Source: Lingula anatina (Eukaryota > Animalia > Brachiopoda). Taken from it: DNA of 64,000 bases. The stretch is taken from contig CM120646.1 of assembly GCA_051362555.1 (NCBI GenBank), forward strand, positions 15,190,001-15,254,000, read 5' to 3'. Positions 19,350 to 37,428 of the stretch are shown here, piece by piece (within the stretch, counting starts at the first letter, position 1; each line of letters begins with the position of its first letter). The notes under the pieces were generated by a model, which worked only from the letters and a program-made list of their open reading frames with translations, was not told where the DNA came from and searched no databases. Made by a program: the position numbers and the translations under genes.

Positions 19350-20016
19350 TAATAGGGGAAAGTATTGGACAAATATCCCCATCATGATTATCCATTACTG
19401 AATTCTACTCAATTTTGTTTTAATAAACAGAAGTAAAACTTGACAACAGCTTCATAGGACACAACCGGCACTATGGAAGTGGACATTTATCTCCTGTCTT
19501 TAAATGTATCGGAGAAGAGAAATACACCACTTCTTAAACGCAAAAGCTCCAGTTAATTTGTACTAATACATGTTCAAAATCATGATGTAAAGCAGCATAC
19601 ATCTTTCACAACATATTGATATATTAATACCCTCTGCCGCGGATTATTCAAGTACACTTGAATTAACCAGAGATACAACTGCGAATATCTAGTGAAAAAA
19701 TCAATCTGTGGCCCTGGTAGAGGGTAATATCATATGGCATTCAAATACGTTCAAATATTACACGTTACTTAATACCCATTTTATTATCATTATACAATGT
19801 TGGTAAATCGCGATTTCTATTTACATTACCTTACTTTCAGCCCAAACAATTAAATCAATTAAAGTAATTATATGCATATGTATGCAGCGATGTATGTCTT
19901 CGATGTGTACACAAAATGCACGTTCGGAAAACCCGACTGTCATGCAGCCATTAATACAATAGCTTTTATAAATTTGTGCCATTCTCGTGCACACGGAATT
20001 TCAACCGTTAATGTTG

Positions 20017-23000
20017 TCATTGCCCGTAATATCCCAAGTCGTGTGATCGAAGAAACATTAATATTTCATCCAGTTTTTGAAGAATCTGGTCTGAAGCTGT
20101 GACGCTTTTGATCAATTGTCTGAATTTCTCTTCGTTGAAATTGTTCATTTTGATCCAATCAATCTTGTCTTGTTTGCCACCTAGCGACAAAATTGCACCG
20201 GAAGCATCTCTCCACGTGTCTTCAAACTTAGCCTCATCCAGCTCGAATTTTCCGTCATGAAAGATGTTATTTCTGATGTCTCTTATCTTGATGATGTGGT
20301 CGATGTCTCCTTGGGATGCTTGACCAGGCTTTAAGACCCAACTTAAGTTCTTTCCATTGGGGTGGAGGTTTCTTATTAAAATGAATAAGAGGGAAATATC
20401 AAAACGTTTTATATCTGCTTGTCCACTGGATGGATACAATTGGTCATACTGTTGAGGGAACATAACTTTTCCCTTTGGCTTCTTTAGTAGTGTGAGACAA
20501 TTTTTTATATCGGAGAGTGCAAGAAATACATTCAACGTCTGGTTTTCTGAAGCGCCCAAGTTGTACTGACCAACGCTCTTTAGTTTCGGAATGACGATAT
20601 CGCGTAGGAAGAACTTACGAAACACACGTGTACCTTCATGTTGGACGAGATATGCGAGCCTGGCGTGGTATTGCATTTGTTGAGGCAAACAACCAACTGG
20701 CTTTGACTGGGCAACACCAGGGTTTGTGTTCACCGGGGGTGTGCAAGGATTCTGTGGCGGAGTAATCGCCGCGGTTTGCGACAGTTGAGCAAATGAGGCG
20801 TTTCCGACACCGTGTGTTTGGTAACCTGCATACGTGGGTTGGTTGGTTGCGTACGGGAAGTACGGGTACAGGAAGCCGGTGTTTAGAGTTGTATTTGTTT
20901 GACCTTTTTCTGTAGCGGACATCATTTGCGATGGATGCCCACCTATGGCTCCCTGCAACTGATGGGGAACCCCCGGAGCGTATTCTGGGGACTGCATTGG
21001 GAAGGCACCGATAGGAACCGACGACAGAGAGGTCTGAAAGCGCGCTGATCCTTGGAGATAACCCTGGTGCCCTTGAGGCATATAACCAATGTTATTGTAA
21101 TATGGTTGATTACCGTGGGTGCCCTCTGGATAGATGGCGGATGGGAAGACAGGTCCAGGGGGTCTGGAAACATTTGATGATTGCACACCTGTATTTTCTG
21201 GGTGGCTAATATTGAATGGCATATGTGGAAAATTGTGACGCGGTCGGAAAGACTGACTCTGTGAATTCTCAATATCATGGGATACATCATGTTCACTCTC
21301 TGTATCTGCAACTTAAATGAAAGTTACATTTTATTATGAATCATACCACCATGTGCATGTACAGTGTTGGCAGAATATCATAACCGATGTGTTTGAATAA
21401 TTAATATAAATCAGACACTAAATATTTTTGTAAAACTTACTACGAGATACGTTGAAGAAAACCTTTTTTCGTAAGCTGCAATCCAACACTGAAGCCTGTT
21501 TTCTGCCCTGCACAGTTGACATCTGCGACACCTCATTGTTAACCTAGCAGAATAAAAAAAATGTATAAAAATTTCACTGTTAAATGCAGTTTTAATCCGC
21601 GGTGCTTTAACATTGACTTCGCAAGATAAAACATTGAAGAAACAATGCTGATAAATTAGTCAAATCATTTTATAACGAATGCGGGTAATATAAGTTCCAA
21701 AAGACAATATTTCTCTGCATAGTTATCAAAGTGGCGTACAAATATGACAAAAGAACATTGAAAATTTGGTCATAGACATTTCTCATCTCTAGCTTCTTCT
21801 CCTTCCCATCTCTATCTCTACGTGTGTTGGTGTGTGCCTGCGCTCGTTTGTATGTGCGTTTCATTGAATCTATCATACCTTAAATGCAGCATTACGCTTT
21901 ATGTAATTCTAATACTTACTTTCAGTAACATTGACAAAACGTCCGATCTGTATGCTTCAGCAGTAAATATTTTTACTATGGATTGAACAAACCATGTCCC
22001 CTTTTCTTTGTCTCGCCACGATACGTAGTCTAAAACAAACAAAAAAGAAAACGTTGCACTTGTCGTTTTTCACATAAAGTGTAAAATTAACTTTATTGCT
22101 AGAAATTGCCTTCGGTGGCTCAGGTTATCCAACGGTAAATACAAACATCCCATTTTAAAAAGCGACACGATCAAGTACATGTACCTGGTGAAGTCGCCTG
22201 TGCCACGAGAAAATCCGACATAGTGGGATCATTGAATTGCTGTGATAATTCATGCGGTGCATCCGGTACATCATTCCCCGAATCAGTGATCTGCGGCAGT
22301 GGCTCCGGTTGTTGCCCTGCTTGTACGTCAGGTAATGTCCCAGAATCCTTTGTCTCTGGGAAAATAAAGAAATAAATGAATATTACATAAAATACCAAGT
22401 GAATCGTGTACTAGTAAAACTGTTAGCCATGTAGTTTCACTTGCTGTATACATGTAGTTGAGCGCTATTAACACTACTATAAAAAATATGTAATATTACA
22501 GAGCACCAAGCTTTGTTAAGTTGTGATTTTATTCTGCTATATTGAAATGAAGCCACTGTAACAAACCTTGTTTGTTTTAAATGCCAGAGATATAATATAA
22601 AAATTCATTTTAATATTAATGGTCTTGTGCTTTTATAACACTAAAAGTTTTATATTCTCAATAAATACCATATATTTACATATGACAAACAAGTAAAAAT
22701 CAATAATTATTATAGCCTTACACAGCCTTACACTTGATCTTAAAGCCATACACATTGTACTCACTTCCCTGGCAAGCCTGAATAAAAATCATTTTCGGTT
22801 TCCCCCTTAGGCCTGGACAGTTTTTGTTATTCAAAATGTTTTTGATCATGTCGTAGGGCAAAAGATAACCATCTGTACCATACACAGCACCATTGTCACC
22901 ATGGCTCAGTAGAAACAGGATGAAGGAATCGTATTTCCTGTGATCTTCGTTTTTACTCTCTTGCTCTATTTCCTCTTTAATTTGCTTCGTTAATAAAAGA

Positions 23001-23041
23001 AACGAGGGCAGTCATGACACAGGTGGAACGGCATGGTAAGT

Positions 23042-23087
<46 letters not shown>

Positions 23088-23434
23088 CATGGATTGCTAA
23101 ATCATAAAGTTAAAGCAGTTTGTGCATATATAGTTTTTTTTTAAAAAAAGACGATATATCACCGAAACGCATGTGTACAATTAGGGAGGTATGGTAGATT
23201 GTTATTACTTTGTTAATTCTGATGAACTTACATTTGCCTCTAGGTTATTGATCACTTCTACATCATATTGAAGGTAACGAAGAAGTTTCCTCAAGGCAAC
23301 TACATCAACTTTGGTTCCATCCCGTCTTGGAAGGTCTTTCACAGAAAAGCATTCGTTACTTATAATTAGTGCACGACCCCTTGGCTTGGAGTTGTTTTTG
23401 TACTGAAAAAGGAATACCCATTAAACACGTAGTG

Positions 23435-23477
<43 letters not shown>

Positions 23478-24829
23478 AACGCGTGCACTAGCATCAAGGT
23501 GTGTGTGTGTGTTTGTATGCGTAAATGTGTTAGCCTCATTCGTATGTGATTGTGACATGAAAATTAAATAAACTCGATCAGCACAAAACAGAAAAACAAA
23601 AAATAGCATTTATTTTATATTTAACGAGGTTTTCATACAATAAATGTGACATTTGAGGACATATAGTTGTTGCCGTGTATACTGAAGCTCGTCAGGGCAA
23701 TTAATGAGGGTGTTGCATTGGAAACGAGGTTTCATAATGTGATCAGCAATAAAAATAAAGAAACTTGCCTCATCTTCTGGGCATCTAACTGCGTACATGT
23801 AATAAGACGGATTATCCGGGACAGCTAAATTGATAAAAAATGAGCTAGTGTTTGACATATTAATGAAATAAACATGGCTAAAATGCGTCAATAAAACATC
23901 TGAAAACCCAGAGTTGTCACCTTCTGTCACCAGAGGTTTAGGAAAAACAGAATTCGCAAATATTCATTTAACTTAATTTTCACTGTTTTGTTTTCTACAA
24001 ATGGACCTATACATTGAGGAGTGTTAGTGTAAAACAGAGAATATTGATAATGCACGCTTCCGATCCTATATCTTTTCTACTGCTGATTAAAAGTTTCCTG
24101 TTACTGGCGAAATGAATCATTTTAACTATCAATGGGAATAAGGCATTACTCACCAGGTTTGGGGCGTGGGATGAGGACGTATTGCTGGGCGATCTGTTTG
24201 CCTTCCTTCAAAAGAAACTGGCTGAGTCCAGAGACGAGAGCCGTTTGGGATTTCACAACAGGGCTCTGTCGAGAGTGATAGCCAATCACACCACTTAGGT
24301 GGGCGGTCACGGCTGATGTTGTATCCGCCCACACAATGGAACCGCTATCGCTTTTCGTGAATCCGGGGCCCTCTGATGGTACCACCTGAAACCAATCGGA
24401 GCCGTATGTCTCGCCTGCATTTCCGTAAGAAACTTTATCGGAAGCAGTTCTTATGGCGAGGCGACCTTGTGTTGGCGATTCCTCAGAAAAGGGAACTGTT
24501 TGTATGTCATATTGTCCTAATGTTCTCAAGAACGTTTCTTTAAGCTCGATGAGGATCCAGTTACACGTGCCATCGTCATGCACGTGAAGGCAGTTGCCGA
24601 CTCTGGTTGGATTGCTAGCACTCCCAGTGAGACAGATGTCGCCCTCTTCCCATGTGCTGTCGCTGCTTGTCCCCGTACACGTCAGTCCTACATATACACA
24701 TTTCCCGTCCTTGTCACTAAGAACGAAATAAAGACAAAGTGTCCTGAAGTCCTCCTGTGCAACCTTCTTCCCACTGGCTTTAGGGCCGCTTTGCTCTTTC
24801 CACACTTTACAGGCTAAGGCTGTTTCCAT
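20017..24829 (-). CDS. Multi-domain caspase: degenerate trypsin-like domain + caspase (C14, p20/p10) + P/Q-rich linker + DZIP3-type HEPN domain, ~931 aa
   Basis: Coding exons 24829-24154, 23824-23769, 23402-23232, 22984-22765, 22355-22185, 22029-21920, 21543-21441 and 21305(or 21311)-20017 join in frame with compatible phases. Motifs: YKNNSKPRGRALIISN, RDGTKVD, LLSHG, GKPKMIFIQACQG, PTMSDFLVAQATSPDYVSWR..GTWFVQS, SLRKKVFF. HEPN motifs: FDISLLFILIRNL and RDIRNNIFH. An in-frame TGA lies just upstream of ATG 24829. Confidence 0.88.
20170..20680 (-). other. DZIP3/hRUL138-like HEPN domain (putative RNase) within the caspase gene
   Basis: YHARLAYLVQHEGTRVFRKFF...QQYDQLYP...FDISLLFILIRNL...DIDHIIKIRDIRNNIFH...KFEDTWRDASGAILSLGG matches the PF18738 pattern and has an intact R-x4-H motif. 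Confidence 0.85.
21441..23402 (-). other. Caspase catalytic domain exons (caspase-8/2-like, QACQG)
   Basis: Catalytic His in LLSHG and Cys in QACQG (exon 22765-22984). Intersubunit linker containing DVPD|A. p10 motifs in exons 22185-22355, 21920-22029 and 21441-21543. Confidence 0.95.
23046..23085. repeat. (GA)n microsatellite
   Basis: Direct read. Confidence 0.95.
23436..23474. repeat. (GT)n microsatellite
   Basis: Direct read. Confidence 0.95.
24154..24829 (-). other. Trypsin-like (PA clan, Nal1/fungal-type) pseudo-protease N-terminal domain
   Basis: TLCLYF...YVGLTCTG (cf. TLGxx...LTxxH), NWILIEL (cf. DWALI) and FTKSDSGSIV (cf. FxxxGDSGSxV). The His and Asp positions appear substituted. 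Confidence 0.55.
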
Positions 24830-25029
24830 AATGGGAAGTCAGCGTCTTCTGAAACAAAATGAACATTCCGACTTTTAGGCGCAGTTTCATTCAATTAATT
24901 GAAATGAAAATATTTACCTCGACAACTTTAAATTTGACTTATAAAATATTATTTTATGTAGTTTCGATAAAAACTGGTGTTGATTATCACACAAAACAAT
25001 CAGAATAGTCAGTCCTGTCGACCGTTGCT

Positions 25030-26300: not shown

Positions 26301-26689
26301 CTACATGTAGCTAGGATAAGCCTACAATGTACCTTATTATGTCTTTTCCCCCATCCCACAAGCACAAATAGCCTACAAGTACAACCGCAAGGAAAAATAA
26401 TATATACGCACGGGTCCAGTAAGCAAGCAAGCAAGTATACACACACATAATAAATGAAATTGCTTTATCGTTTAAAACATGCACAAGACATGGGTTATTT
26501 ATGATCCATATGTATACTCTGTGTCAGATGGGATAGTCACCTGATCAGTAGGCGCAATCGACCTTCACAGAGCGACTGACCTATTTGTAGGCCCGAGCCA
26601 CTTTCAAGATCTTTCGAGATAATTTCTAGGATTTAGCCTTGCGTCGATAGTCGATCCACAACACAACAATTCAACGCCTTACACTTGAC

Positions 26690-26945
26690 ATGGAATTACC
26701 TCTCTTTTTAAGACGAATACGTCCATATAAGAGACCAATGGCGCTTTTTCTTTCACACTTCCTAATACCCCTTAGCAAAATTTCCAGTGTTGCTATTTTT
26801 ATACACGCGCATGCGTGTCTGAAGTCTGGGGAATCCCCAGTTTCGCCTACTATGATGAGGCAAATTTTATACAGAGAAATCAGAAAAACCCAATTCCACG
26901 AAAAGTAAAAAGAGGGGGAACACTTAAATATTGACTCTGGAGGTA
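26690..26945. promoter_or_regulatory. Putative bidirectional promoter with a perfect NF-kB/Rel site and an NRF1-like motif
   Basis: CTGGGGAATCCCCAG (26826-26840), AAAATTTCC (~26777) and GCGCATGCGT (26807-26816). Candidate donors on both strands: GAG|GTAATT on minus at ~26699 and GAG|GTATAT on plus at 26942. Lies between divergently oriented genes whose first coding exons both begin after splice acceptors. Confidence 0.6.
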
Positions 26946-30627: not shown

Positions 30628-32124
30628 GATTTCGACGTCTGCATTTGTGTCATCCTTGATATCTTGTTTTCTTCTTTTTGAATAACATTAACTTTAAGTC
30701 TTCTTTTTTGCTGGTGTCTGCTTTTCAAATATTGATACTTGAATGACCTCAAAAAAATTATGACATAGTGCACTGAATGTTTGCGGTTTGTCCGATTCAA
30801 CGTTGATAGCCACCCCTTGCACTCAAAGGAAATGTTTCACAATACAAAAACCGATGAAAAAAGTGATTGTATTCCTGAAATTTTATGCTCTCCACGCAAT
30901 AGGTATGGTATCGTCATTTGAAGAGGTTTCTTTTGTTCTTTCCAAGAAAACGTACGTCCTGTAATTGGCCTTACAGACAACGTGTACCTCAATAAACAGA
31001 ATATGTGAACAGTGTATAAGTTAAGAGTGAAAGTAAATTTCAACTAGAGATATAATGTAAGCGAAGTAAAGTTTAAATTAAGACTTATCTTAAACCTCTT
31101 AGAATTAATTATGACCTTATAAATGTACAGTGTACAACTGAAATGTCATTGTCAACACCAAGGCACCCAGTTGAGCTCATGTACACGCACGATTTTACAC
31201 CTACAACACATACAACCGTGCTATAGATAATGTAGAGGTTTTAAAGAAAGACTTGAAACATTCTTAATTGAAATTTTATATTTTGTCATTTTATCATAAA
31301 AAGACTATTACTGTCATAACCAGCATTAATTATTAGAATTTTTTATTCACCTCAGCTTCAAGTATTTATACATGTATAATAACTGGCAATTCTGATAATT
31401 TTTTTGTAAACAGAAATAAATATAATTATTATTATGCACAAAAACAAAACCCAGTTAATCAATGGTGGCGGTTATATTTCTGACGGGTAGCCTCTGATCC
31501 CATCAAAATTGCCAAATGCATGTTCGTGAAGCCACGCATCAAAATTACCAAGTACGTACGTGTAGCCATTTTCACTTTTAACTAAATATTTTCATCTTCC
31601 GAGAAAACCTGCTTTTAGTCAGTTTATCTGAGCCTGACCTTACAGGAAATTACGCTGCGTAGAGACACTGGGAAGTGTGTATAGAAACTGCGGCGTGGAA
31701 ATAGTGTAATCATCGGTATCAGATTACAAGCCGCAGTATTAAAAGGGGGGGGGGAGCTCAGGTGATTTGCTTCAAACATCTGTAACATTTAAATCTCTCG
31801 TTGCAATTTTATGATATATATTTATATCAATCTTTCTGCGTTAAGTGATATCCATGTATAATTACAAGATATGATAAATGTGAGTATGGTGGATATGTGG
31901 AGGAAAAGCCCCATGCCTCGGGGGCCAAGGTTGCATTGTACGAAGGAATAGAAGGCTGTTCCGTGCAAGGGGGATATCAGACGCATTGCGTTTGATGCGA
32001 TTGAAAGCAGATTACATACGGGAAACTTAATCCTTGATTTCTTTTCACTCTTTTAAATTTGTTAAAATTTGTGAACCCAACTTAATTGACTTTTGCCTTT
32101 TTTGTGATTTTACAGTCAGCGACA

Positions 32125-33036
32125 ATGACAGCACAAATTGACGCTTACTTCCAAAGAAAGGTTCAGCACCGCCCCGCCACAGACGACCTACGGTGTTGGT
32201 GGGACAGGGTAATACAGTGGATTGGACCATTTTTGCTATTAGTGGGCTTCATAGCGATGGTACTCCACGTAAATGTAACAGTCAGGTGCTCAGTGAATGG
32301 CGACATCGACTTAAAAGCCCTCGGTACAAACGCTTCATCTTTGCAGTCCACGACACTACCCAATGCTGATTTTGTAAACGCACAATGCAGTTCCCAACTT
32401 GGATTTCCCACAAAAAGTTTTTCAGGAATTCTGATTGCTCTGGCGTTTATCCTAACTCTAATCGGTAATCTCTGGTTCCGTTTACCGATCACAAAATCTA
32501 AAATGAAAACTTTCAAATCAAGGACAGACGGGTCAATAAAGTCAAGTGGAACTCAAGAAGAAATACAACGTATGATATCAGATCCTGGTTCCACTCCTGT
32601 TCCTGATGCCTACGATGACTTAAAGAAACAACATGAAGAACTATGGCAATATAGACAGTGTCTAGAAAAGAAACGTTTTCTTGGCAGGTTTTACCTGGCC
32701 AAGAGTGTAGTCCAACTGGTGTTTTCCGTTTTGGCGCTAGTGTTCAGTGTGTTTTTTGCGGGTTGGCCATCAATGCACCAGGGGTTGTTTCACTGCACAT
32801 TGGCAAATGTAAGAGCTGCCTACGTTTGTACACGAACCCTTGGGACATGGTTCATTATTCTGAATGTCATTTACGCCATAGCTGCTGCTCTGTACATAGC
32901 TATATTAGTATTTGGTATTGTGTGGTACCTCAAAGAAGGCAGAAAGCCATACGGTCTGGACGAAAACGCAGACAAAATTACTGGCAGACAGAAGTCGACC
33001 AACAAGCCCCAGGAACAGGTAAAAGTGCTAATCTGA
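32125..33036 (+). CDS. LRRC8/pannexin-like 4-TM large-pore channel domain without LRRs (single exon; either stops at 33036 or splices at 33018)
   Basis: LRCWWDRV (cf. LRRC8 LKPWWDVF), DFVNAQC...KSFSGIL...NLWFRLPITKSKMKTF (cf. YVDAVC...KYFPYL...NFWFKFPRTSSKLEHF) and FHCTL...YVCTRTLG (cf. VDCTV...YRCAHPLA). Four hydrophobic segments and extracellular Cys pairs. Acceptor TTTTACAG at 32115. Confidence 0.88.
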   Translation: MTAQIDAYFQRKVQHRPATDDLRCWWDRVIQWIGPFLLLVGFIAMVLHVNVTVRCSVNGDIDLKALGTNASSLQSTTLPNADFVNAQCSSQLGFPTKSFSGILIALAFILTLIGNLWFRLPITKSKMKTFKSRTDGSIKSSGTQEEIQRMISDPGSTPVPDAYDDLKKQHEELWQYRQCLEKKRFLGRFYLAKSVVQLVFSVLALVFSVFFAGWPSMHQGLFHCTLANVRAAYVCTRTLGTWFIILNVIYAIAAALYIAILVFGIVWYLKEGRKPYGLDENADKITGRQKSTNKPQEQVKVLI

Positions 33037-34697: not shown

Positions 34698-37428
34698 AGA
34701 CTAGTTCCTCAGGAAGTGAAGGCGATGAGATTGCAGAAGTGCATTCATCCAAGCACGAGCTAGAGGTACAAATATATAGTGATTTCTGTTATTGATTAAG
34801 TCTTATATTTAACTGAGTATTTTTGTGTAGAATTTACACATAAAATGTAATATTTTGATTAATTGATGTTACATAATTGTTGAGGGCCCTGAATAGGTGT
34901 AATGACTTTATTACTCGCTTGACATTCTCACGACATACCTTATTTTAATGCAATAAAAGGCCCAACTACCACAACGGCAGAGTTATACAGTCTCATCTTT
35001 GACGGGACGGTGATGATTCGACTCAAATATGATAGGCCCTATCACAAAACTAATCAATAATCCCCTTAGAAAGATAATTATCTTGAGATAAGGGGTTGGT
35101 TTGGAGGGGAATGGTCTTACGAATGTGGTGGATTCAGGGGAAGCTGAACAGTGCCCCGCCTAACATTACTAATACCATTTTATCACTAAGGCAGGCTAAC
35201 AAGAGGTTTAGAGGACATCGTTAACTGTAAAATATGTAACATTTGTTGCTTTATTGCTATTCACTCCAAGATACGGTATGGTCTGAATCAATATCAAAAT
35301 AAAGTTTTGACTCTGTATCTCCTTGTAGGTTTGTGTAGAAAGCGATTCTCTTCTTGTCAAACAAAGAGATGTACCAAAGGTGAGCACCGATCATTTTTAT
35401 AAAATTATCCAACTTTTTTTTTTTTTTTTTTTGTTCCTTTTTGCAACGTAAGCGTTAACAAGAATGGTCATTTTATTCAGTCTTTGGTTTTACATGTAAG
35501 ATAACAAAAATTGTGCGACAAATGTTTTAGCGAAATGAGAAATTTATACTTATACTTTATACTCTTTTTGGTAAAAACGGCAAACAGTAATACTATATTG
35601 ACAATCCTATTTCTGTCATTGTTCAGGAAGTCGATACATTTCAAGGAGACGCAGCTTTTATGGTGCGCCTTTTGGAGAGAAACAAGTCCGAGGAAGCGGA
35701 GCACGTGACGCGGATGATGTCCCGTCCGTTAAAGGAAATGCTGGAAGGTTGGTCAGCATGCTAGACACTTTTCTGAATACTATGTCTCTGGTGGATTCTA
35801 CTAATACTTTAAAGAATTAAATACAACAGTCTAGGGAATTATGGAAGATTATAGAATTACGTGAAGTGCCGCACTGCTGATATCAAACAAAATGATACCA
35901 CAAACATACAGACAGACAGACAGACGTTTATGTACAGCCTGTACAGCCTATACAACAAGGGGTTTATCGCTCTTCATTTTCTGTTAACATGAAAAGCATT
36001 TTTCGAATTTTAGGTGTGGTGTTTGATCCAGATGAAATACGAATCCATCATGAAACCATTGAGGATGATGATACGGTCACTGTCAACCTGGAGTGGAATG
36101 GGCCGCTCAAAGGGGAATACTCGGGGTTTAGAATAACGGTAGAGAAGAGAACCGACGGGAATTTTGTGGCTGATAACACAGTTCACGTTGTGAAAGCAGA
36201 AGTCGGTGAAGAAAGAGAGAGAACAGCGTGTTTGCGACATTTAGAGCGCGGTTCTGTATATAAAGTCCGAATCTTTACTGTATTGGAAAAAGAAGAAGGG
36301 GTTTTCAGAACAAGCCAGCCGTCAAAAATAGTCATAGCTACTAGTAAGTATAAGTCATTCGTGTAATTATATGTATTATAATACATATCAAGAAGTGGTC
36401 GTATCATTCAACTACACCTCTTTGCAAGGAATATAAATGGTGTTACGTGCATGAATACGCACCGAATGCGAATGCATGCACTTTACGGGCAACGCCCTTT
36501 CCTTTGGGGCGCAGATTTTCATCCCGCATTTAACCAGGTTTATAGAACGAATAGGTGCTTCATTCATTATAAGATAATTCTTTCTATGTATCATTGATTT
36601 TTTTAATATGTCATCTTCAGAGCCACCCGAGCCCCGTTTATTTGTTCTGAAAAAATCACCTGGAAGATTTGCAAGAAATGACAGGAGGTTAACATTGACC
36701 GGTATGGTGGACAAGGGTAATGTGACCTCATTCGTTTTGCAATACAGCGTTTACTCCACCCACGCTAGCACGAGTGGGACTCATTCGAAAACCACCACGA
36801 AATCGCGTGCAATTCCGGATGTTATAACAGGCAAAGAGACAGATATCCAAGTGAGAGACCTTCTACCAGGGACACTCTACAGGTGGGTTAGCTAGGTTTT
36901 AATGTAGAATCTCCTCCTCCTTAGCAATGGAAGGGCGCATACACATATGTGTAATGGAAAGCTTCGTGGTATAAATTTTTCACATTTTAAACCCGTGTGA
37001 ACACGTTTCATAACTGATGACGACGAATGTAGGTTAACGTGACTGTAGTTACAGGTAGATCTTCATTAAATGGGTTAACCATTCTTTTCTAGCGCCTCTC
37101 CTGTAATCAGATTATATAGTTATATGTGTGATTTGCTTTATGTTATATGTGATTTGCGTCATGTTATTTATGCATGAAGAGGCGGTGTGTCGTCCTTCTA
37201 TGCTAAAACATTGATTAAAATGAATTGTTTGTATTATTGACCGCTATTAGCAGTTGTAGGACGTGGTTACCACTCACCAAATCTCTGGCTTTCAGATTCA
37301 TGCTGAAGTGCAGATGTGACTATAGTAAAATGGAAACTGAGGAAAGGCCAATAAACATGGATGCTTCTCACACCGAAAGTGATTTCGTTGAAATAACTGT
37401 TCTTACAAGTGAGTGGATAAATGCAATT

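Follow-up and report, generated by a model that had tools for sequence, protein, structure and literature searches.

In RNase L and Ire1, dimerization of the kinase pairs the RNase. Both enzymes are named as HEPN homodimers, and the characterized HEPN nucleases are described as needing dimers in which two motifs are juxtaposed (10.1101/760058). HEPN domains of the DZIP3/hRUL138-like family (PF18738) stand at the N-terminus of bivalve HEPN-NACHT proteins with their Rx4H motif intact (PMC9646362), and one protein of the coral Orbicella faveolata, XP_020625600.1, is tabulated as HEPN+TRADDN-DEDD2+CASPASE within a lineage-specific immune expansion (PMC8195603). In lophotrochozoan caspases, species-specific enzyme or sensor prodomains are reported to replace CARD or DED, among them PARP (in Lingula), ROC, kinase, TIR, subtilase, Z-binding and ankyrin (PMC11463336). 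The extra domains of animal caspases sit before the protease in the surveys PMC11463336 and PMC7836458, and the caspase is the last domain in all animal architectures among the rows listed in PMC8195603. Here, we describe a gene on the minus strand (24848-20017) of a 64,000-nucleotide stretch of the brachiopod Lingula anatina genome (assembly GCA_051362555.1, contig CM120646.1, positions 15,190,001 to 15,254,000; hereafter the window). Its product (RefSeq XP_013395069.1) is predicted to hold, from the N-terminus to the C-terminus, an N-terminal domain, a caspase, a linker of about 210 amino acids rich in proline, serine, glutamine and glycine (P/S/Q/G), and a DZIP3-type HEPN domain. The gene is an expressed member of a gene family, and its order of a likely pseudo-protease, a caspase and a HEPN domain is probably genuine and apparently undescribed.

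Given the coral protein, a table already records HEPN and caspase within a single animal chain; the Lingula gene arranges known parts in a new order. In the coral protein the order is reversed and a TRADD-N adaptor lies between the two domains, whereas in the Lingula gene the caspase is internal and the HEPN domain comes after it. The original prediction, made from the window alone, had set the gene apart from canonical animal caspases, which end after p10; this holds for the order of the domains, which was not found elsewhere in the searches made, but the joining of HEPN and caspase is shared with the coral. The bivalve HEPN-NACHT proteins have the same HEPN family at the opposite end of the chain. 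Compared with the lophotrochozoan caspases above, the Lingula gene has a prodomain that is probably trypsin/Nal1-like and a second enzyme past p10. The best working analogy is offered by RNase L and Ire1, in which a dimerizing signalling enzyme precedes a C-terminal RNase that needs dimers, although there a kinase or pseudokinase is packed on an RNase of a different HEPN family, while the Lingula protein would have a protease and a flexible tether of 210 amino acids. No published account of a caspase followed by HEPN was found in a literature search that left out most subscription papers. XP_013395069.1 is not among the rows listed in the tables of PMC8195603, whose source data tabulate other Lingula HEPN fusions, and is absent from the table of 24 Lingula caspase accessions in PMC11463336; the term HEPN does not occur in the supplement of the latter or in the main text of the bivalve caspase survey PMC7836458. 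Judged from its sequence, the gene is likely one of the domain-shuffled immune effectors of marine invertebrates, with known parts in an order so far seen only in Lingula.

The exon chain was assembled from splice signals and the reading frame, independently of RefSeq. It gives an intron-rich animal gene whose eight coding exons (24829-20017) form a single stop-free frame of 933 amino acids, or 931 if the downstream one of two acceptors ahead of the last exon (21305 instead of 21311) is used (Table 1). Of the seven coding introns, six have GT-AG ends and the remaining one has GC-AG ends. A TGA closes the frame ahead of the start ATG, and the start exon is connected to a non-coding upstream exon by a joint with GT-AG ends (24848/26541; 4 reads of RNA run X4). 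XP_013395069.1 (LOC106162344, 932 amino acids, 'uncharacterized protein') equals the window model at 931 of 932 aligned residues; the two differ by a V/I change, and the window model has an additional Thr. The match includes the 56-nt micro-exon, which ends ...RCPEDE directly ahead of the caspase and is identical in the RefSeq protein. Neither this micro-exon nor the 225-residue N-terminal domain was part of the original prediction. The use by RefSeq of the GC-donor micro-exon and of a weaker AAG acceptor suggests that transcript evidence lies behind its model. The last exon, of about 1.3 kb, is open throughout, and its linker contains 28 P, 21 S, 21 Q and 20 G over 212 amino acids.

Table 1. 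Features of the caspase-HEPN gene, in window coordinates and in the order of transcription.
Feature	Position	Strand	Evidence or remark
Non-coding upstream exon	26541..26742	-	3' end 26541; 26742 is a depth-bin limit only
Exon with start ATG and 225-residue N-terminal domain	24154..24848	-	ATG at 24829
56-nt micro-exon, GC donor GAG/gcaagt at 23769	23769..23824	-	Frame requires the exon
First caspase p20 exon (YKNNSKPRG...RRDGT; S1 Arg271)	23232..23402	-	PF00656 E 1.5e-8
Catalytic caspase p20 exon, SHG and QACQG	22765..22984	-	PF00656 E 1.6e-22; joint 22355/22765 in reads
p20/p10 linker and start of p10; candidate sites QITD/S and DVPD/A	22185..22355	-	Sequence; joint 22029/22185
Caspase p10 exon, SWR (Arg437)	21920..22029	-	PF00656 E 2.2e-5
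Last caspase exon (exon F), end SLRKKVFFNVSR, phase-1 donor GTAAGT	21441..21543	-	Last-strand alignment to coral caspase-3 and CED-3
129-nt intron with read-through stop, AATAAA and tandem acceptors 21311/21305	21312..21440	-	
Low-complexity P/S/Q/G linker, about residues 503-714	20677..21311	-	Asp505, Asp511 and Asp515 at its start
DZIP3-type HEPN domain, stop 20019-20017	20017..20676	-	Pfam match 20535-20125

The caspase is very probably fused to the HEPN domain by splicing, since the two share a single frame, two RefSeq models use the same donor, and the HEPN and caspase exons have similar read depth. As had been predicted, p10 ends at SLRKKVFFNVSR and a phase-1 donor is present at 21441 (CGTA/GTAAGT, the full GTAAGT consensus). 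The claim that no stop follows p10 is correct if the intron is spliced; unspliced, the frame reads SRSKFYKNI and stops at a TAG (21420-21418), with an AATAAA at 21335. The acceptor proposed at 21305 is an in-frame AG, but both XP_013395069.1 and a second Lingula protein, XP_013407939.1, join the last caspase exon to the acceptor at 21311 (FNVSR-IADTESEHD), and 21305 was therefore rejected as the sole acceptor. The two in-frame acceptors lie 6 nt apart on the minus strand, and the upstream one puts Ile-Ala-Asp in place of Asn; the choice between them adds or removes Asp505, a possible caspase site just past p10.

Seven of nine species-labelled Lingula RNA runs were aligned (X3 and X6 were left out), which gave 8 alignments with 6-30% of each run. 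A joint was listed when it had at least 3 reads from 2 starts within one run, and some loose ends stay hidden. The joints listed were 22355/22765, 22029/22185 (7 reads, 3 runs), a 376-nt skip that matches the intron after exon 22029-21920 (5 reads, 2 runs), and the 5' intron. Mean depth over the HEPN exon, exon E (caspase) and the N-terminal exon was 6.2, 11.3 and 10.0 in X7, 12.8, 7.6 and 6.5 in X8, and 7.5, 7.9 and 3.4 in X9, such that HEPN and caspase depth were similar in three of four runs (X7, X8 and X9). Reads of the HEPN exon were present in all 7 runs, with very few in X1, X2 and X5. No depth was seen in 14 of 16 pure-intron bins, and exon F alone can accommodate all read bases in bin 21312-21475. 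In the strand-biased run X4, the exon reads were all on one strand. The listings for the 7 RNA runs gave the HEPN exon neither a 5' exon of its own nor a pile-up of reads. Taken together, the reads show that sequences closely homologous to the N-terminal, caspase and HEPN exons are expressed.

The predicted caspase was recovered with PF00656, which matched 3 of the 5 caspase-region pieces scanned from the window exons and aligned over its whole length (profile 1-233) to residues 251-496 of XP_013395069.1 (E 1.3e-58). Numbered on the window model, His329 in SHG (328-330; motif 22906-22898) and Cys372 in QACQG (370-374; motif 22780-22766) are both intact, as are the Asp-binding Arg271 (RRDG, 270-273) and Arg437 (SWR, 435-437). 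These motifs aligned with their equivalents in 6wi4 and 8jol, and the best matches in the PDB were coral caspase-3, CED-3 and caspase-9. The gene is predicted to encode a caspase with intact catalytic residues that may be capable of Asp-specific proteolysis and of self-processing, with QITD/S and DVPD/A as candidate sites. Caspase activation proceeds by dimerization along the last strand of p10. PMC4715348 gives a description of the beta-6 interface. No CARD or DED prodomain was found in XP_013395069.1, where Pfam at E up to 1 gave only PF00656 and PF18738; nor did Pfam find a TRADD-N or Death-like domain, although a very divergent TRADD-N could escape it. The stretch after p10, which the original prediction called Asp-rich and proposed as a site of release, holds only three Asp (505, 511 and 515), and the next Asp comes at 740. 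The three are followed by T, V and I, residues that caspases disfavour after the cut, and QITD/S and DVPD/A fit caspase preferences much better; the proposed release sites are thus present but poor.

The last exon was predicted to encode a linker of about 200 amino acids and a HEPN domain, and both are there. PF18738 matched it with E 4.5e-23 (82.1 bits against a curated cut-off of 27; profile 4-140 of 144), HEPN_DZIP3 was placed at residues 761-897 of XP_013395069.1 (E 1.3e-22), and ESM Atlas matched the domain to HEPN_DZIP3 clusters at 0.95-0.96. The Rx4H motif is intact at residues 849-854 (20274-20257, minus strand), as had been claimed for RDIRNNIFH, but it reads RNNIFH and starts at the second Arg. 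It aligns with RNELCH of a HEPN-NACHT protein. Rx4H with Asn after the Arg is the commonest form reported among 202 pearl-oyster DZIP3 HEPNs (PMC9646362), and RNNIFH fits this form. A search of the PDB by sequence gave no solved relative of the HEPN domain (0 matches at E up to 10). These results suggest a predicted RNA-cutting domain with an intact RNase motif.

The 225-residue N-terminal domain has no Pfam match, and searches of NCBIfam, PHROGs and PDB sequences gave no credible match. In ESM Atlas, the domain had a recognition value of 2105, under the threshold of 2300; its top three matches were at 0.97, the matches as a whole included Trypsin, Trypsin_2 and Nal1_C sets, and it was placed near trypsin-like and Nal1_C clusters at 0.96-0.97, one of which is mostly molluscan. 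Bacterial Nal1/S64-like proteases were gathered by motif (121 loci, 72 of them with a long enough frame), and all five that were checked match Nal1_C (E 7e-11 to 0.003). A profile of the 72 proteases scored the N-terminal domain at 11.3 bits, compared to a best score of 7.0 in 500 shuffles, and at -1.6 when the selecting motif was masked. In a global comparison, 15 of 150 shuffles reached a score as high, which is not significant. Folding on 33 of the bacterial sequences gave a model with a predicted local distance difference test score (pLDDT) of 51.5, whose weak fold matches (E no better than 0.055) were to S1 proteases and NAL1, a circular result; a single-sequence AlphaFold model (pLDDT 30) was uninformative. 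In the alignment to the bacterial proteases, which is uncertain in its N-terminal half, the His of the triad is replaced by Gly and the Asp by Asn, the Ser is kept, and GDSGS reads SDSGS (24352-24338). The bacterial set keeps H in 72 of 72, D in 71 of 72 and S in 72 of 72. An active N-terminal serine protease was rejected because of the Gly and Asn in the His and Asp columns. Although the profile tests were mixed, a trypsin-like origin of the domain is probable, and if so it is likely catalytically dead. A metagenome scan with the domain gave 109 pattern matches, none of which was confirmed, and four tblastn matches on Rhizobium plasmids (E 0.2-3; open reading frames were read at two of the four) were taken as chance.

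Relatives of the gene were found in Lingula itself, using word-based searches of weak sensitivity. With the N-terminal domain, none of 860 candidates among longer proteins was a homologue, and a search over 1.84 billion representatives gave a single match, the Lingula paralog XP_013407924.1 (LOC106171938, 307 amino acids). This protein has an N-terminal domain about 90% alike, followed by a more divergent, truncated caspase (61-75%), with only 61% identity over exon 23402-23232. With the HEPN domain, one of 493 candidates of near length matched, XP_013407939.1 (LOC106171950, 458 amino acids, 'uncharacterized protein'), a 99% match from the HEPN-exon search with 7 differences in 458 amino acids. 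Among longer proteins, one of 395 candidates matched, a HEPN-NACHT-TPR protein without a caspase; the full-length protein was missed in this search because it is a member of the cluster of XP_013407939.1. XP_013395069.1 and XP_013407939.1, which cluster together, come from scaffolds of 54 kb and 516 kb, respectively. The resemblance to XP_013407924.1 and XP_013407939.1 shows that the gene belongs to a small brachiopod family. XP_013407924.1, which corresponds to the 5' half (N-terminal domain and partial caspase), and XP_013407939.1, which corresponds to the 3' half (end of p10 and HEPN), both list a longest contig of 516,319 bases, and their locus numbers lie close together; either a split gene model or tandem paralogs may explain them. 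In the RNA reads, 8 reads of X7 leave the exon end at 24154 into homologous sequence. At least three different continuations occur at the same exon ends (read loose ends at 21918, 22765 and 24154). These continuations point to the expression of several paralogs or divergent alleles of the Lingula caspase family, and some family members are without HEPN.

We tentatively propose, as the best of the readings considered and with an appreciable chance of being correct, that the gene encodes a spliced pseudo-protease-caspase-HEPN immune effector with a dimerization-coupled HEPN RNase. One protein would serve as the immune effector, and its N-terminal pseudo-protease would replace the missing CARD or DED as a sensor, decoy or oligomerization module; since neither CARD nor DED was found, this domain is the natural candidate for the trigger. 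Clustering would make the caspase dimerize and cut itself at QITD/S or DVPD/A. Because HEPN nucleases and caspases are both dimer-dependent, dimerization of the caspase would pair the HEPN domains carried on the two p10 C-termini. The p10 C-termini of the dimer would tether two HEPN domains through their flexible linkers, and pairing would form a composite Rx4H site and switch on RNA cutting. Proteolysis and RNA cleavage would jointly shut the cell down. In a more specific and rather doubtful version, a dead trypsin-like decoy would sense a pathogen protease, inhibitor or substrate, the caspase dimer would license the tethered RNase, and paralogs or splice forms would leave the RNase off. If this is true, the protein would serve as an antiviral and suicide switch resembling RNase L, with a caspase and not a kinase as its driver, and as a single-chain counterpart of the bacterial sensor-protease-effector module.

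Several observations weigh against this proposal and the fusion on which it builds. The 21441/21311 joint was below the listing threshold in all 8 alignments of the 7 runs, even though X7 and X8 had 11 and 10 reads, respectively, 25 nt from the donor, and the predicted fusion thus has the frame, two RefSeq models and the read depth on its side but lacks a listed junction. Four X8 reads run from exon F into other sequence whose translated loose end reads IAQGEQE and a stop, which indicates that a paralog or allele ends after p10. In X5, the N-terminal and caspase exons were covered about 4x and the HEPN exon 0.4x. Most reads are only 85-95% alike, and next to no depth was seen on exon 23402-23232 in any alignment; the source of the RNA is thus for the most part divergent alleles or paralogs. 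Finally, the intron at 21312-21440 itself supplies a stop and an AATAAA. Together with the fact that RefSeq models can be wrong, this stop and AATAAA, the unlisted junction and the X5 depth would fit a caspase that ends within this intron, with the HEPN exon in another transcript or only rarely joined. We consider this very unlikely, since the read bases of the intron bin all fit exon F, the donor is a full GTAAGT, two RefSeq loci use the joint, and the HEPN exon showed no alternative 5' exon. Even if spliced, the HEPN exon might be a by-product of exon shuffling that was captured behind one Lingula caspase and is functionally uncoupled from it. Its position as a single terminal exon behind a phase-1 intron would fit this, as would the paralog or allele that ends after p10 and the result that no caspase-then-HEPN relative was found outside Lingula by the word-based searches, whose sensitivity is limited. 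In addition, the differences in HEPN look near neutral: among 62 distinct read differences listed in two alignments, 10 of 29 were synonymous in HEPN, compared to 11 of 24 in the N-terminal domain, 4 of 5 in the caspase and 3 of 4 in the linker, where a share of about 27-28% is expected without selection if each change is judged alone, and HEPN thus shows little sign of constraint. None of the 62 differences, which come from reads that are about 10% divergent, creates a stop or touches RNNIFH, however, and the 1.3-kb frame is intact. The HEPN exon is also expressed in several runs, and fast change is expected of immune genes as well; the selection pattern is compatible with rapid evolution of an immune gene as well as with weak constraint. 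An uncoupled by-product appears improbable.

Other readings accept a functional HEPN domain and differ in how it would be coupled to the caspase. The coupling might run in reverse, with HEPN as the sensor and dimerizer, such that viral or damaged RNA would pair the HEPN domains and activate the caspase by proximity. Without a CARD or DED another dimerizing module is needed, HEPN proteins are predicted to be RNA sensors or RNases (PMC8662601), and bivalve caspases with double-stranded RNA-binding prodomains are reported (PMC7836458). We regard this as unlikely, given that the N-terminal domain occupies the usual place of caspase activating modules, and that the RNase motif is intact and an active RNase under constitutive tethering would need an off state of its own. 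Alternatively, the active caspase would cut at Asp505, Asp511 or Asp515 and set free a linker-HEPN fragment with RNase activity, in the manner of bacterial protease-effector modules. The only three Asp within residues 497-739 do cluster just past p10, the tandem acceptor adds or removes one of them, and effectors gated by proteolysis are described as common in prokaryotic defence (10.1101/2025.11.14.688446). The poor residues after these Asp argue against such a release, which would moreover take away the tether that favours HEPN pairing, and we give it little probability.

Elsewhere in the window, a single-exon open reading frame on the plus strand (32086-33036) encodes a pannexin-like/LRRC8 transmembrane protein (PF12534, E 1.7e-8). 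On the same strand, 29 of 66 open reading frames scanned had fn3 matches and one had a C2 match (35896-60560). If the LRRC8-like frame and the fn3 frames are one gene, it would encode an LRRC8-like channel in which a huge fn3 array replaces the leucine-rich repeats; the apparent donor at 33019 has phase 0, against phase 1 for the acceptor of the first fn3 frame near 36015, and thus another exon would be needed. Downstream of the HEPN stop, 19683-19728 drew hundreds of partly matching RNA reads on both strands and is probably a dispersed repeat or the end of a miniature inverted-repeat transposable element.

Molluscs and other invertebrates have widely expanded sets of DZIP3-type HEPNs, and the Lingula gene offers a small, single-gene construct for asking whether they cut RNA and what switches them on. 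If a nuclease does lie behind p10, apoptosis-type proteolysis would be tied directly to RNA destruction in one chain, which would give invertebrates an RNase L-like output.

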